From a virus (Duplodnaviria > Heunggongvirae > Uroviricota > Caudoviricetes), in the IMG/VR virus record IMGVR_UViG_3300029828_000038, positions 1 through 19,305 of that record: a DNA stretch of 19,305 bases; one strand, written 5' to 3'. This document shows, in pieces, positions 1,830 through 7,194 of this stretch. The notes under the pieces were generated by a model. The model was not told the origin of the DNA, made no database searches, and saw nothing but the letters and a program-made list of their open reading frames with translations. Both the position numbers and the translations under genes were made by a program. Each line of letters opens with the position of its first letter. Within the stretch, counting starts at the first letter, position 1.

Positions 1830-2255
1830 ATGTTTGGTATTTTCAAAAAGAAAACCCGCAAGGCCATTACTGAAGTAAAGAAAATGGAGAACCGCGACGC
1901 AGTGGAGGCGACCGTCTGGGGTGCGTATTCCATCGCATTCGCCGACGACACCTGTGACGCGAAAGAAGTCGCGGTACTGGAGAAAACCATTGCAGCACTT
2001 CCTGCCTTTGCGCCGTTCTCCGGTGAGATTGCACAAATGAGTGCAAATATCCGCGCCCGTTATGAAGCGTCGCCGCGCTCTGCCAATGCTGAAGCCCTTC
2101 GTCAGCTGGCTGACGTGGCAGGTACTGATGACGCAGTTAATGTGCTGTGCCTGTGTCTGGATATCGCTGACCAGGATGGCATTGGTCCGGATGAAGAAGC
2201 ACAACTCAAGAAAATTGCTCAGGCACTGCAGTTGCCGCTGGAGCAGTACCTGTGA
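1830..2255 (+). CDS. TerB-like (tellurite-resistance TerB family) protein, phage cargo gene
   Basis: ATG at 1830 preceded by AAAGGAAAAG. The 141-aa product has the TerB-type acidic motif DIADQDGIGPDEEAQLKKIAQAL and predicted helical character. It sits between terminator-like hairpins, upstream of the lysis genes. Confidence 0.7.
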   Translation: MFGIFKKKTRKAITEVKKMENRDAVEATVWGAYSIAFADDTCDAKEVAVLEKTIAALPAFAPFSGEIAQMSANIRARYEASPRSANAEALRQLADVAGTDDAVNVLCLCLDIADQDGIGPDEEAQLKKIAQALQLPLEQYL

Positions 2256-2404
2256 AAAGTGCGCGCCTTGTGCTGGCTGCCATCCTGCTGTTTCTGGTAG
2301 TGGTGGTGGATTTCACCGGACGGCTGATGTCGGTGCTGGCAGATGGTGTGCTGGTGGCGATGGCGCTGGCCGTACTCCGGCCTTTACTGCGCAAATCTGA
2401 ATAA
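2252..2404 (+). CDS. Small hydrophobic two-helix membrane peptide (50 aa), translationally coupled to the TerB-like gene; not in the ORF track
   Basis: GTG at 2252-2254 overlaps the TerB stop TGA 2253-2255 (GTGA), with GGAG at 2240-2243 upstream. Hand translation: (M/V)KSARLVLAAILLFLVVVVDFTGRLMSVLADGVLVAMALAVLRPLLRKSE, stop TAA 2402-2404. Codons are CTG/GTG-rich. It falls below the apparent 60-aa cutoff of the track. Confidence 0.4.
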   Translation: MKSARLVLAAILLFLVVVVDFTGRLMSVLADGVLVAMALAVLRPLLRKSE

Positions 2405-2455
2405 CACCACACAAAAGGCATCTGCGGGTGCCTTTGACGGGGTGTTGTTTTTTAC

Positions 2456-2477
2456 GGGCCGCTGGTGGCCCTTTTTT
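2456..2477 (+). terminator. Intrinsic terminator-like hairpin plus T-tract upstream of the lysis genes
   Basis: Stem GGGCC (2456-2460) / GGCCC (2467-2471) with loop GCTGGT, then T6 (2472-2477). A second hairpin AGGCA/TGCCT lies at 2416-2433. Confidence 0.5.
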
Positions 2478-2495
2478 ATTTACAGGAGAAAAAGT

Positions 2496-2888
2496 ATGTC
2501 TGAACCCTTATCCGGTTCCGGCACGGCTGCGGCGCTCGGCGGGGCGACGGTATTCGGGCTGTTTACCGGAACGGATTTCGGGATTGTGTTTGGTGCGTTC
2601 GCCGGGGCGTTGTTTGTGGCAACGATGCCGCAGAAGATTTCAGCCTGGCGTGTGGCGGCACATTTTCTGGTGTCGTTCATTGTTGGTGTACTGGGGGCGC
2701 GTGTACTGTCAGCCTGGATTGCATCAAAAACAGGTTATGACGGTACATCTGCGGATGCACTGTGTGCGGTGCTGGTGGCGGTGGTGTCGGTGAAGATTCT
2801 GTCGTTCATCCACCAGCAGGATATCGCATCACTGGTGTCCGGCCTGTTCTCGCGCCTGCGGGGTGGAGGAGGCGGCAATGTTAAGTAA
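2496..2888 (+). CDS. Putative holin / lysis membrane protein (three predicted TM segments)
   Basis: ATG at 2496 preceded by ACAGGAGAAAAAG; this is the in-frame internal start of track ORF 2343..2888. The 130-aa product has three hydrophobic segments and a charged Gly-rich C-terminus, and lies immediately upstream of the endolysin. Confidence 0.55.
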   Translation: MSEPLSGSGTAAALGGATVFGLFTGTDFGIVFGAFAGALFVATMPQKISAWRVAAHFLVSFIVGVLGARVLSAWIASKTGYDGTSADALCAVLVAVVSVKILSFIHQQDIASLVSGLFSRLRGGGGGNVK

Positions 2889-3153
2889 CCTTCCCGGATT
2901 GCTGAATGTGGCGTTATGCACGGTTATCGTGCTGACGCTCTTTTTTTATCGTCGCCGTGATTCCAGACATAAACCGCTGATGTCATGGCTGGCCTGGCTA
3001 CTGATGCTGCTTTATGCCTTTGCACCACTCAGCTATCTGTGCGGTCGCCCGTTAGCGGCGAACTGGCTGGCGGTGGGGCTTAATCTGCTGTTCTGCGTGC
3101 TGGTGATACGTGCACGCGGGAACGTCACAAAAATCTTTCCAATGTTGAGGTGA
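2878..3153 (+). CDS. Second lysis-cassette membrane protein (holin/antiholin-like, about three TM segments)
   Basis: ATG at 2878 preceded by GGAGGAGG, overlapping the upstream gene by 11 nt. The 91-aa product is hydrophobic with basic loops (FFYRRRDSRHK). Its stop TGA 3151-3153 is 2 nt before the endolysin start. Confidence 0.5.
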   Translation: MLSNLPGLLNVALCTVIVLTLFFYRRRDSRHKPLMSWLAWLLMLLYAFAPLSYLCGRPLAANWLAVGLNLLFCVLVIRARGNVTKIFPMLR

Positions 3154-3155
3154 AT

Positions 3156-3533
3156 ATGTCGGGTAAATTCAGATTCAGCCGTCGCAGTGAAAAAAATCTG
3201 GAGGGCGTCAAACCACAGCTGGTTGCTGTCGTTCGCCGTGCGCTGGAGCTGACGGAGGTTGATTTCGGTATTACGGAAGGCCTGCGCAGTAAGTATCGCC
3301 AGAAACAGCTGGTTGCGGCAGGGAAAAGCCAGACCATGAACAGCCGCCACCTGACAGGTGATGCGGTGGATGTTGTGGCCTACATTGGCAGCCAGGTGTC
3401 ATGGGACTGGCCTCTGTACGAGAAAATAGCGCAGGCATTTAAGCAGGCTGCCGCAGAGCTGGGAACTACCATCGAATGGGGCGGTGAGTGGCGGTCCTTA
3501 AAGGACGGGCCTCACTTTCAGTTGAAACGCTGA
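3156..3533 (+). CDS. Endolysin, L-alanyl-D-glutamate peptidase (peptidase M15 / VanY-like, phage T5 Lys-like)
   Basis: ATG at 3156 with GAGGTG upstream. The 125-aa product has the T5-Lys-like pattern: KFRFS..SEKNL..VKPQL..RRALEL, the zinc-ligand motif SRHLTGDAVD, and C-terminal EWGGEW...DGPHFQL. Confidence 0.85.
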   Translation: MSGKFRFSRRSEKNLEGVKPQLVAVVRRALELTEVDFGITEGLRSKYRQKQLVAAGKSQTMNSRHLTGDAVDVVAYIGSQVSWDWPLYEKIAQAFKQAAAELGTTIEWGGEWRSLKDGPHFQLKR

Positions 3534-3547
3534 TAACCAGGTGTGTT

Positions 3548-3730
3548 ATGAGCAGAAAACACTGGACACACAGAATGCCGCGAACGGCGGCGAAATGGGC
3601 ACTGGTAGCGATACTGGTGCCTTTTTTATTGGTGGGATGCGTCAGCCTGGATAAGGCGCGCCAGCTTTTCGATACGGCTTCTCAGGTCTGCGAAATTGTT
3701 GACGGTGTTCGGCAGTGTCTGCAGAACTGA
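3548..3730 (+). CDS. Small outer-membrane lipoprotein, lysis-associated (spanin-like position)
   Basis: ATG at 3548 with AGGTG upstream. Signal peptide with basic n-region, hydrophobic core and lipobox LVGC. The mature part is 30 aa (CVSLDKARQLFDTASQVCEIVDGVRQCLQN), with Val at +2 and three Cys. It starts 14 nt after the endolysin stop. Confidence 0.6.
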   Translation: MSRKHWTHRMPRTAAKWALVAILVPFLLVGCVSLDKARQLFDTASQVCEIVDGVRQCLQN

Positions 3731-3901
3731 TCGCCCGTAAGAGCAGAATATTTTGCTGAAAAATGAAGGATGCGTCAGCGCCCGGAAAGCATGAAATTCT
3801 GTGTTTGCGGTCATTCAATAAAATAAATTCTTTCTTTCGCCGCGAATACTCAAATGTTGATCAGCGCCAGGTGCGGCGACGGGCTTCGATATCAGGAGAC
3901 G

Positions 3902-4180
3902 ATGATGGGAAAAACAGAAAACAAACCGATTTTAGTTGGTGTCGCGTCTATTCCGTTTAAGTTTGAACTGTCACAACTGGTGGAAGTATGCATCAGTGAT
4001 GAATGGGGTGAGGTTAAAGCTCGCGCTCAGTATGCAGATGGCGAAAACCAGTACTTGCTCCACTACAAAGCTGCTGATGGTCGTGCCACGACGGAGTGGT
4101 TTGGTGAATCAATGCTGGAAGCAACAGAAGATGCTCGTCATCCGGGCTGTCCGGTATTTGCCTTCATGAAATTACCGTAA
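3902..4180 (+). CDS. Hypothetical protein (92 aa, soluble), candidate cargo gene
   Basis: ATG at 3902 preceded by TCAGGAGACG. No TM segment or recognisable motif. It is preceded by a 170-bp AT-rich spacer and followed by the palindrome GTTACTGAGTAAC (4190-4202) and the hairpin GCAGCCC/GGGCTGC (4213-4235). Confidence 0.5.
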   Translation: MMGKTENKPILVGVASIPFKFELSQLVEVCISDEWGEVKARAQYADGENQYLLHYKAADGRATTEWFGESMLEATEDARHPGCPVFAFMKLP

Positions 4181-5243: not shown

Positions 5244-7000
5244 TGGCAAAAGTGGCTGACGGGATCCGCTACGCCGAACGTGTTGTTGCAGGAGAAATTG
5301 TCGCTGGCGAATTTGTCCGTCTGGCCTGCCAGCGTTTTCTTGATGATCTGAAGTACGGCGAAGAGCGGGGGATTTATTTCAGTGAACCCCGTGCGCAGCA
5401 CATCCTGAATTTCTACAAATTTGTGCCCCATGTAAAAGGGGCGCTGGCAGGCCAGCCCATTGAACTGATGGACTGGCATGTATTTATTCTCATTAATATT
5501 TTTGGTTTTGTCATTCCGCTGGTCAATGAAGAGACCAGGGAAGTTGTTATGCGCAGCGATGGCAGCGGACGTCCGGTGATGGTGCGCCGGTTCCGGACGG
5601 CGTACAACGAAGTCGCCCGTAAAAACGCAAAATCAACCCTGTCATCGGGTATCGGTCTGTATATGACGGGGGCAGATGGTGAAGGCGGGGCTGAGGTGTA
5701 TTCAGCCGCAACCACGCGTGACCAGGCCAGAATCGTGTTTGAAGACGCCAAAAATATGGTCAGAAAAGCCCGGTCGACACTCGGGCGATTGTTTGATTTC
5801 AACAAGCTGGCGATTTACCAGGAGCAGAGCGCATCAAAATTTGAACCGCTTTCTTCGGATGCAAACAACCTGGATGGTCTGAACATCCACTGCGCCATTA
5901 TTGATGAGCTGCATGCACATAAAACCCGCGACGTGTGGGACGTTCTGGAAACGGCAACTGGTGCCCGTCTGCAGTCCCTGTTATTTGGTATCACCACGGC
6001 TGGCTTTAACAAGGAAGGGATTTGTTACGAGCAACGCGATTACGCCATCAAGGTATTGCGTGGCTATAACAGTGACGTGGAGGGCGCGGTAAAAGACGAC
6101 TCTTACTTTGCGATCATTTACACGCTCGATGAGGGAGATGATCCGTTTGATGAAACGGTCTGGCAGAAAGCGAATCCCGGCCTGGGCATCTGTAAACGCT
6201 GGGATGATTTGCGTCGTCTGGCGAAAAAAGCGAAGGAGCAGGTTTCTGCGCGGGTGAATTTTTTCACGAAACACATGAATGTGTGGGTCACTGCCGAATC
6301 TGCCTGGATGGACATGATTAAGTGGGAGAAGTGCGAATACATTGCTCCACAGCATGAGCTGAAAACATATCCCATGTGGGTCGGTGTAGACCTTGCTCAT
6401 AAGATTGATATCTGTGCGGCGGCAAAACTCTGGCGAACCGATAACGGACATGTTCATGCTGATTTTAAATTCTGGCTCCCGGAAGGACGGCTGGAGCGGT
6501 GCTCGCGGCAGCAGGCAGAACTTTACCGGAAATGGGCGGAGATGGATAAGCTCATCCTGACGGATGGTGATGTTATCGATCATGCTCAGATAAAAAGTGA
6601 CTTACTGGAATGGATTGGTGGTGAAAACCTGAGGGAGCTGGGATTTGACCCGTGGAGTGCAATGCAGTTCAGTCTGGCTCTGGCTGAAGAAGGGATACCG
6701 CTGGTGGAAGTTCCGCAGACGGTCCGCAATCTGTCAGAGGCTATGAAGGAAACGGAATCACTGGTCTATGCCGGGCGTTTTCACCACAGCAATCACCCGG
6801 TCATGAACTGGATGATGTCTAACGTTACGGTAAAACCGGACAAAAACGACAATATCTTCCCGAACAAATCCACGCCTGAAGCCAAAATCGACGGTCCTGT
6901 TGCGATGTTTACAGCAATGAGCCGGATGCTGGTCAATGGCGGTGAACCGGAGCCGGATCTGTCTGAGCATCTGGTCAGCGTTGGTATTCGCTCGCTTTAA
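5243..7000 (+). CDS. Terminase large subunit (Terminase_1-like)
   Basis: 585 aa, size and position typical. ATPase-like N-terminal region and nuclease-like C-terminal region by pattern. Coupled to the small subunit. Confidence 0.9.
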
Positions 7001-7011
7001 CCGAGGGCATT

Positions 7012-7194
7012 ATGTTTCTGATAATTCTCACGCCACTGGTGGGCGTGCTGGGGGCGCTTTTGCTGGCGTATGGCGCCTGGCTGATTTATCCCCCGGCAGG
7101 TTTTGTTGTTGCCGGGGCGCTGTGTCTGTGCTGGTCGTGGCTGGTTGCGCGTTATCTCGATCGCGGTCACCGGGTCGCCTCTGGAGGTGAGTAA
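7012..7194 (+). CDS. Small two-helix membrane protein (60 aa) between terminase and portal
   Basis: ATG at 7012, 11 nt after the terL stop, with GAGGG upstream. Product [60 protein letters not shown] has two hydrophobic helices and a charged tail. Its stop TAA overlaps the portal ATG (TAATG). Confidence 0.5.

Follow-up and report, generated by a model that had tools for sequence, protein, structure and literature searches.

How might a phage breach the outer membrane when its lysis cassette carries no recognisable spanin? The question is raised by a stretch of caudoviricete DNA of 19,305 nucleotides (IMG/VR record IMGVR_UViG_3300029828_000038), here called the window, meaning the whole stretch that was analysed; it is the visible part, 19.3 kb, of a phiP27-like E. 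coli prophage. At positions 2496-3730 of the window, four co-oriented genes encode two holin-family proteins, an M15C endopeptidase, and a lipoprotein of 60 amino acids (aa). I infer, tentatively and with a probability a little short of even, that this lipoprotein is an orphan lytic lipoprotein of the outer membrane which replaces the spanin. The features of the cassette are as follows.

2456-2480, plus strand: intrinsic-terminator-like hairpin, GGGCCGCTGGTGGCCC and then a T run, separating the first lysis gene from the TerB/DUF3927 moron pair upstream of it
2496-2888, plus strand: holin-family membrane protein 1, 130 aa, Phage_holin_8 / phrog_198
2878-3153, plus strand: holin-family membrane protein 2, 91 aa, Phage_holin_3_7 / phrog_217
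3156-3533, plus strand: putative M15C L-alanyl-D-glutamate endopeptidase endolysin, 125 aa, assigned by PF13539, phrog_465, and matches in the PDB
3548-3730, plus strand: lipoprotein precursor, 60 aa, phrog_7528 (function unknown), occupying the spanin slot
3597-3628, plus strand: terminator-like RNA hairpin inside the open reading frame (ORF) of the lipoprotein (codons 17-27), with an 11-bp stem, a GCGA loop, and then U6

All gene elements described in an earlier sequence-only reading of this DNA were found where it had placed them, with the lipoprotein as the fourth gene, after the endolysin. That reading had offered the two overlapping membrane-protein genes as holin and antiholin candidates. 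In profile searches, both products matched curated holin families above the Pfam gathering scores (26.4 bits for Phage_holin_8 and 25.4 bits for Phage_holin_3_7), and not non-lysis families. Membrane protein 1, whose gene has an AGGAGA Shine-Dalgarno sequence, contains three to four hydrophobic segments and a charged Gly-rich C-terminal tail, and it matches PF16931 Phage_holin_8 (6.2e-24, 84.9 bits) and phrog_198 'holin' (2.8e-42). Membrane protein 2, the start of whose gene overlaps the end of gene 1 by 11 nucleotides (nt), has three transmembrane domains (TMDs; residues 1-25, 33-56, and 58-81) and matches PF05449 Phage_holin_3_7 (8.9e-22, 77.4 bits) and phrog_217 'holin' (1.7e-37). Both PHROGs are placed in the category 'lysis'. 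By profile, by their multiple TMDs, and by their position before the endolysin, both proteins are assigned to holin families. No relevant prior experimental work was found in the literature on these two holin families or on cassettes of the type present in the Shiga toxin 2e (Stx2e) phage phiP27.

The third product had been described as a T5-like peptidase of the L-Ala-D-Glu type with the zinc motif SRHLTGDAVD. The motif is present (NSRHLTGDAVD, a C-terminal PHFQL, and an overall H-x6-D...H zinc motif), and both the profiles (PF13539 Peptidase_M15_4, 5.7e-12; phrog_465, 8.6e-73, category 'lysis') and solved-structure homology agree with the enzyme type. The likeness to T5 is correct as to type and not as to nearest kin: the closest solved relative is Serratia ChiX (5opz, 5.5e-43 over 120 aligned residues), followed by two phage M15C L-Ala-D-Glu endopeptidases at about 1e-42, while the T5 endolysin 2mxz is more distant (7.4e-23). 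Neither a signal, a signal-arrest-release sequence, nor a TMD was found in its 125 aa, and the enzyme is classed as a cytoplasmic M15C L-Ala-D-Glu endopeptidase.

What, then, is the fourth product? The gene begins 14 nt past the endolysin stop codon and encodes MSRKHWTHRMPRTAAKWALVAILVPFLLVGC/VSLDKARQLFDTASQVCEIVDGVRQCLQN. The signal peptide has a long basic n-region and the h-region ALVAILVPFLL, and it ends in the lipobox LVGC31, which is followed by the outer-membrane sorting residues Val+2/Ser+3, with no Asp at +2. This signal peptide region (residues 12-37) is the sole hydrophobic segment, and the chain ends 29 residues past Cys31. The mature part of 30 aa is Pro-free, has a net charge of -1, and shows a hydrophobic seam at 3-4 residue spacing (L4, A7, F11, A14, V17/C18, V21, V24, and L28). 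The supplement of an earlier spanin survey gives the phiP27 homologue as 83% helical (PMC6139136). The only profile match was phrog_7528 'unknown function'. No Pfam family, including Lysis_col and Entericidin, was hit at E <= 1, NCBIfam and PADLOC gave no match, and database searches with the window protein and with a divergent Lelliottia form returned nothing beyond a narrow enterobacterial family whose members bear uninformative names. A 37-aa ORF embedded in the lipoprotein gene (3541-3654) has neither a TMD nor a lipobox.

Is there a conventional spanin that has simply been missed? Relatives were collected as 83 loci from IMG/VR and GTDB genomes, with more added by exact protein look-up; 86 loci with holins of the same two families (hol8/hol37-type) were compared. 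The window, the complete phiP27 genome, and these 86 loci (from -3000 to +1500 nt around the lipoprotein gene) were scanned in six frames for lipobox ORFs and for ORFs with a single N-terminal TMD. The 19.3-kb window has exactly one lipobox ORF, that of the 60-aa lipoprotein, and no credible type-II membrane ORF; the matches in the window were out-of-frame ORFs inside other genes. No inner-membrane spanin (i-spanin) and no embedded Rz1 frame were found in any part of this search. The claim of the sequence-only reading that the cassette lacks both is therefore borne out over the whole window, and a search of all frames for cryptic spanin ORFs was just as empty in phiP27 and in the relatives. 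Several candidates were rejected on the way. Out-of-frame ORFs inside TerB, the StxB signal peptide, and similar sequences are artefacts of the scan. A basic 65-aa ORF at 3763-3960, considered as a disruptin-like candidate, overlaps the start of the phrog_1935 gene and is poorly conserved as a protein in phiP27. A two-TMD protein at 7012-7194, considered as a distant partner, has no periplasmic domain, and phiP27 L22 (409 aa, with an N-terminal TMD and a T5orf172/GIY-YIG domain) has a size and domain content that speak against an i-spanin.

This result conflicts with a published call. Kongari et al. (2018; PMC6139136) catalogued phiP27 as having a two-component spanin of the 'separated' kind, whose periplasmic span of 32 + 30 residues is the shortest in their set. 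Their i-spanin is an ORF of 64 aa with 32 periplasmic residues (NC_003356, 20348-20542), and their outer-membrane spanin (o-spanin), the only member of its family, lies at 20706-20861. The latter is the homologue of the window lipoprotein. The i-spanin ORF begins with TTG, lies within an insertion of about 470 bp that the window lacks, and is antisense to a 90-aa minus-strand phrog_36812 gene (5e-20), of which a homologue with 46% identity exists elsewhere. No PHROG or Pfam family matched the i-spanin ORF, which occurs only in phiP27 among the 86 loci, and the complete phiP27 genome offers no other i-spanin candidate. Since it is insertion-borne, antisense to a PHROG gene, without a family, and confined to phiP27, the published i-spanin ORF is judged to be spurious. 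Thus, the 'shortest known two-component spanin' very probably does not belong to that class, which corrects the catalogue entry and strengthens the earlier view that the cassette has no spanin pair.

It is still conceivable that the lipoprotein is the o-spanin of a conventional but very short two-component system, with a small type-II i-spanin nearby or elsewhere in the prophage. The published catalogue entry, the canonical lipobox with its outer-membrane sorting residues, and the fact that only 19.3 kb of the prophage are visible all speak for such a system. Against it stand the fate of the phiP27 i-spanin ORF and the lack of any other type-II candidate in the full phiP27 genome or near the lipoprotein gene in any of the 86 loci. 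Moreover, the periplasmic parts total only 62 residues, the low extreme of the range of 62-300 (PMC6139136), so that spanning of the periplasm is doubted. I regard this explanation as highly improbable. The cassette is already known as a sequence of the phiP27 type; what the comparison adds is the removal of the published i-spanin and the placement of an orphan, predicted helical lipoprotein in the spanin slot.

The evidence for that slot comes from sister cassettes. A search with a divergent holin_3_7 protein recovered a group of cassettes (loci L109-L118) whose holins are 41-49% identical to the window family and belong to the same PHROGs, 198 and 217. One of them, L109, carries the same three families as the window (phrog_198, phrog_217, and phrog_465). 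Its endolysin gene is directly followed by one that encodes an Rz-like i-spanin of 177 aa (phrog_312, 1.8e-50) and in which the gene for a Pro-rich Rz1 lipoprotein (phrog_11621) is embedded. The rest of the group has other endolysins and the same Rz/Rz1 arrangement. Since Rz/Rz1 is found in the sister cassettes exactly where the lipoprotein sits, a replacement in the slot is indicated: cassettes of this type have, as their fourth element, either a canonical spanin pair or the 60-aa lipoprotein. Descent of the latter from Rz1 was considered and rejected. In hhalign, it aligned with the sister-cassette Rz1 over the signal peptides only, with a probability of 25%, and it is thus not detectably a truncated Rz1.

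A decayed copy was also found. A lipoprotein pseudogene with three in-frame stop codons lies between the Rz and terminase genes in phage GER2 and in the Stx2 phages of E. coli O104:H4 2011C-3493, all of which possess S, R, and Rz/Rz1 (locus L087, 3990-4180; also L088 and L095-L104). This pseudogene adjoins a minus-strand gene for an Ais-like lipopolysaccharide heptose-phosphate phosphatase.

Outside that lineage, the gene is well kept. The lipoprotein ORF is intact in 86 of 86 hol8/hol37-type loci. Variable sites fall 30/22/49 on the three codon positions, the ratio of nonsynonymous to synonymous substitution rates (dN/dS) is 0.14-0.34 in a comparison of five genera, including the Salmonella, Citrobacter, Yersinia, and Cronobacter copies, and C31, C48, and C57 are invariant across the homologues. 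On these four grounds, the lipoprotein gene is taken to be a real gene under purifying selection. The constraint is unevenly spread, with 14 of the 18 invariant columns falling in the signal peptide, as HWTHRxPR and LVAILVPxLLxGC (residues 1-31, window 3548-3640). Because third codon positions vary in the HWTHRxPR n-region, the constraint there acts at the protein level, which suggests that the signal peptide has a role of its own. The family was found in 354 of 5,426 complete E. coli genomes, pseudogene-type copies included, and also in Salmonella, Citrobacter, Yersinia, and Cronobacter.

The neighbourhood is equally constant. The order holin_8, holin_3_7, endolysin, and lipoprotein, with the lipoprotein last in the module, holds in E. 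coli, Salmonella, Citrobacter, Yersinia, Cronobacter, and Lelliottia, and in relatives the start of the lipoprotein gene is often coupled to the endolysin gene by an ATGA overlap. The endolysin of the module may be the M15 enzyme or a GH108/PG_binding_3 muramidase. The lipoprotein remains about 95% identical beside either type of endolysin and beside holins that are only 31% identical, which argues that no specific phage partner is needed. Its carriers have contractile tails (phiP27) or non-contractile, siphovirus tails (the window); thus, the lipoprotein follows the lysis module and not the receptor-binding module.

The same identity values bear on the idea that the lipoprotein is a periplasm-facing regulator of lysis timing, an antiholin-like or lysis-inhibition factor acting on the holin pair. 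The two holin-family genes may divide their labour in more than one way, and small envelope proteins are known to modulate holins: Lcc6 of phage LambdaSo is one case, and T4 RI is another small envelope protein that does so. However, a lipoprotein that is 95% identical beside 31% identical holins shows no co-variation with them, sorting to the outer membrane would put it away from the holins, and the sister cassettes place a spanin, not a regulator, in the slot. A timing role is therefore considered very improbable.

When would the lipoprotein be made? A hairpin lies within the signal-peptide codons. The segment 3572-3640 folds with a minimum free energy of -28.6 kcal/mol (z = -4.1), and 30 nt of the hairpin are almost invariant, even in the pseudogene and in the Lelliottia copy, whose protein is 60% identical and whose hairpin flanks are heavily substituted. 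In the alignment, 98.8% of cells are paired and the changes in the stem mostly preserve pairing through G-U wobble; no double compensatory change was found in the alignment, and the shuffle controls were not exceeded in the covariation analysis. A function of the hairpin as RNA is suggested by these data. It could be a terminator that limits expression of the lipoprotein and of downstream genes to Q-antiterminated transcription, or one that halts transcripts of morons inserted upstream, and it may explain part of the conservation of the signal peptide. Since there is no room for a promoter of its own and the terminator-like hairpin is conserved, expression of the lipoprotein is probably limited to Q-antiterminated late transcription.

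Taken together, the constrained gene, its place at the end of the lysis module, the slot replacement, the pseudogene beside Rz/Rz1, and the absence of an i-spanin from the scanned sequences lead to the following model. The two holin-family proteins would, with near certainty, permeabilise the inner membrane and release the signal-less M15C endopeptidase, which would, again with near certainty, cut the peptide stems of the murein. By the rules of Sec, Lgt, LspA, and Lol, the prolipoprotein should be exported, lipidated on Cys31, cleaved, and delivered to the outer membrane. Its mature part is likely to form a single amphipathic helix that bears two more invariant Cys residues and a heptad-like hydrophobic seam. 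After loss of the murein, the lipoprotein would disrupt the outer membrane in place of Rz/Rz1, by acting on that membrane or on a host envelope component and without a phage-encoded inner-membrane partner. The manner of action may be closer to that of small lytic lipoproteins such as the colicin lysis proteins and entericidin B than to that of a periplasm-spanning fusion complex.

In its boldest version, the model becomes a 'one-gene spanin': the unusually long and conserved signal peptide would keep a slowly processed precursor in the inner membrane, and the mature lipoprotein would pair with this precursor through the Cys-bearing amphipathic helices after murein removal. In a milder version, the lipoprotein could be a phage-borne analogue of the colicin lysis proteins, triggering the host phospholipase A or perturbing Lpp or Lol. 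That the 60-aa gene stands for one more type of phage outer-membrane disruptor, a lytic lipoprotein acting without a partner, seems rather unlikely, though not strikingly so.

Several points weigh against the proposed replacement of the spanin. The position in the cassette is circumstantial evidence for a lysis role. No route is known by which an anionic helix of 30 residues could breach the outer membrane alone. The structure prediction (AlphaFold2) gives one continuous helix with low confidence (pLDDT 65), and no sequence relation of the lipoprotein to the colicin lysis proteins, the entericidins, or Rz1 was detected (Pfam at E <= 1; hhalign). A distant partner gene may lie elsewhere in the prophage, of which only 19 kb are visible. 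All pseudogene copies are in one lineage and thus count as one evolutionary event. A prophage with the same holin pair and a GH108 endolysin, SerU-LTIIb, has no lipoprotein; it is partial and possibly defective. In addition, tiny membrane proteins, possible partners of the lipoprotein, are encoded just upstream in about 40% of the relatives. Finally, the junction between the endolysin and lipoprotein genes (14 nt in the window, 3534-3547) is an insertion hot spot in relatives, and such a hot spot for morons means that the region tolerates non-lysis genes.

This last point leads to the question of whether the lipoprotein is itself an accessory or moron-type envelope protein, a factor for superinfection exclusion, receptor masking, the envelope, or serum resistance, in a phage that has no dedicated outer-membrane step and relies on osmotic or shear rupture. 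The junction accepts unrelated inserts: KilA-N genes, an HNH endonuclease gene, a 93-aa phrog_33497 gene, and the phiP27 minus-strand gene. In some relatives, the module is closely followed by LT-II-type toxin genes, and Stx genes lie just upstream. No spanin can be identified in about 13% of phages of Gram-negative hosts (PMC6139136), phrog_7528 is not a lysis family, and SerU-LTIIb does without the lipoprotein. On the other side, the linkage to the holin-endolysin module across tail types, and hence across receptors, argues against receptor masking. Genes of the Llp and Cor types adjoin receptor-binding genes. The lack of room for a promoter, the tight coupling to the endolysin gene, and the internal terminator point to expression late in the lytic cycle and not in the lysogen, and the lipoprotein has no PADLOC match. 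Rz/Rz1 replaces the lipoprotein in sister cassettes, and the lipoprotein has decayed where Rz/Rz1 is present. An accessory role is thus regarded as unlikely, with a chance that is nevertheless substantial.

The tiny membrane proteins raise another alternative, a non-canonical two-part device made of these proteins and the lipoprotein, with the window carrying a degenerate or weakened form from which the partner has been lost. The arrangement between endolysin and lipoprotein was tallied in 77 informative loci. In 35, the M15 endolysin gene is followed directly by the lipoprotein gene, as in the window; another 33 have one or two genes for tiny membrane proteins in between (phrog_4493, or phrog_1115 with phrog_4906); and the other nine have different inserts (KilA-N, HNH, the phiP27 minus-strand gene) or arrangements. 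These proteins, which the window lacks, are of 57 aa (phrog_4493), 60 aa (phrog_1115), and 44 aa (phrog_4906); examples are encoded at 5507-5680 of locus L003 and at 3662-3844 and 3862-3996 of locus L090. They may modulate the holins or act together with the lipoprotein. A two-part device would fit their immediate upstream position, with a gap of 1 nt to the lipoprotein start in 19 of the 33 loci, and unconventional inner-membrane anchors have been raised as possible i-spanins (PMC6139136). However, no more than about 28 residues of the tiny proteins lie outside the membrane, most likely on the cytoplasmic side, and no domain evidently reaches the periplasm. Neither phiP27 nor pPE4, both of which were deposited as complete phage genomes, has them. 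They are also missing beside the Yersinia, Lelliottia, Citrobacter, and S. salamae copies and in 35 loci of the E. coli type, where the lipoprotein is equally conserved; and they could equally well be holin modulators, like the 65-aa Lcc6. A two-part device is accordingly held to be quite improbable, and an orphan lytic lipoprotein in place of the spanin remains the preferred, tentative reading.

Why does it matter? Spanin-less phages make up about 13% of the phages of Gram-negative hosts, and disruptin is the one characterised alternative by which such phages breach the outer membrane. The present cassette offers a genetically tractable E. coli case, with one gene of 183 bp and with the sister Rz/Rz1 cassettes as built-in controls. 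Furthermore, the lipoprotein family sits in prophages carrying Stx2e, Stx2k, and LT-II-type toxins, and for Stx phages it is established that release of the toxin from the cell depends on phage lysis. If the proposal is true, a lipopeptide of 30 residues destabilises the enterobacterial outer membrane from inside, which would be relevant to envelope biology and antimicrobial design.

The genomic setting agrees with a lysis module. Upstream of the cassette are genes for a DNA methylase, a TerB-like protein, and a DUF3927/TciB-like protein; downstream are a phrog_1935 gene, an HNH gene, P27-type terS, terL, portal and head genes, and a lambda/HK97-type tail. With terminase, head, and tail genes downstream, the cassette is placed as the late lysis cassette of the prophage. 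The hairpin at 2456-2471, directly 5′ of gene 1, has a stem of six pairs, five of them G-C, and a T run. The TerB-like gene (1830-2255) and the DUF3927/TciB-like gene (2252-2404) occupy a site that adjoins the holin gene upstream, with the hairpin coming next. The same pre-holin site holds stx2e in phiP27 and Stx2k or pertussis-like toxin genes in other relatives, and window 1830-2480 appears to be a moron-exchange site. The methylase (54-827; PF01555; PADLOC type II MTase model, 9e-99) is an N6/N4 DNA methyltransferase encoded ahead of the late region, an arrangement shared with phiP27 (L24). The 60-aa two-TMD protein at 7012-7194, in the interval between terL and the portal gene, has a conserved counterpart in phiP27 L37 ('membrane protein') and matched no family; it is unusual to find a membrane protein inside the block of head genes.

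The region is 92% nucleotide-identical to phiP27 and to two other deposited phages. RefSeq and GenBank records of relatives label the first three genes as holin, holin, and endolysin, while the lipoprotein gene is left unannotated, replaced by an out-of-frame ORF (L32 of phiP27), or called 'hypothetical protein'. In phiP27 (locus L001), L31 (5076-5291), which overlaps the endolysin gene, and L32 (5570-5725), which is out of frame in the lipoprotein gene, are probably spurious. In pPE4 (locus L002, 5915-6097), the lipoprotein gene was left unannotated. The record of that locus, PP818812.1, was deposited as a phage of Actinobacillus pleuropneumoniae, an unexpected host, as its lysis region is 92% nucleotide-identical to E. 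coli prophages.

How does the cassette compare with known systems? The nearest is phiP27 itself (NC_003356; genes L28-L30 and the unannotated lipoprotein gene at 20679-20861), with 92% nucleotide identity over 2400-3800, the same gene order and holin and endolysin families, and a lipoprotein that is 95% identical. It differs in the insertion of about 470 bp with the minus-strand gene between endolysin and lipoprotein, in having stx2e upstream where the window has the TerB/DUF3927 pair, and in being a myovirus, whereas the window prophage has a tail of the lambda/HK97 type. The Rz/Rz1 genes of L109-L118 share the position after the endolysin and the same holin PHROGs (L109 also the same endolysin PHROG). 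Rz1 resembles the window lipoprotein in being lipid-anchored in the outer membrane, in its signal peptide and lipobox (LLVGC), and in having Cys in the mature part. In contrast, the window cassette has no i-spanin and its lipoprotein is outside the known Rz1 and o-spanin families; Rz1 is about 60 aa, Pro-rich, and has a C-x-P-[ST]-C motif, while the mature part here is 30 aa, Pro-free, and predicted to be helical.

The u-spanin gp11 of T1 and the disruptin gp28 of phiKT are likewise single-gene solutions for the outer membrane in phages without Rz/Rz1. However, a u-spanin needs a C-terminal TMD, which the window lipoprotein lacks, and the disruptin is of the cationic antimicrobial-peptide type, whereas the lipoprotein has a net charge of -1 and a lipobox. 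The disruptin has no lipoprotein signal or lipid anchor.

A holin together with an M15 L-Ala-D-Glu endopeptidase is also found in the phage-derived chiWXYZ module of type 10 secretion in Serratia marcescens (PMC4259817). There, ChiW is a lambda-S-type holin and ChiY/ChiZ are a spanin-like pair, whereas the window has two other holin families and an orphan lipoprotein, and its cassette lies directly upstream of HNH, terminase, and head genes, as is to be expected of a phage lysis module and not of a secretion system. Entericidin B is a small enterobacterial lipoprotein of about 30 aa in the mature form, for which a role as a bacteriolytic, membrane-active toxin has been proposed; whether it is itself lytic is disputed, and it is chromosomal and paired with an antidote lipoprotein (PMC7296081). 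The window lipoprotein has no Pfam Entericidin match and resembles it in small size and in being a lipoprotein. The colicin lysis proteins are made as precursors of 47 aa with a mature form of 28 aa, are sorted by Lol to the outer membrane, and permeabilise the envelope through outer-membrane phospholipase A with no inner-membrane partner, their over-expression being lethal (PMC2896534). While the window lipoprotein has no PF02402 match, is encoded in a phage late operon, is predicted to be helical, and has two extra Cys residues, it resembles the colicin lysis proteins in size (30 aa against about 28-35 aa when mature), in its lipobox, and in its orphan status.

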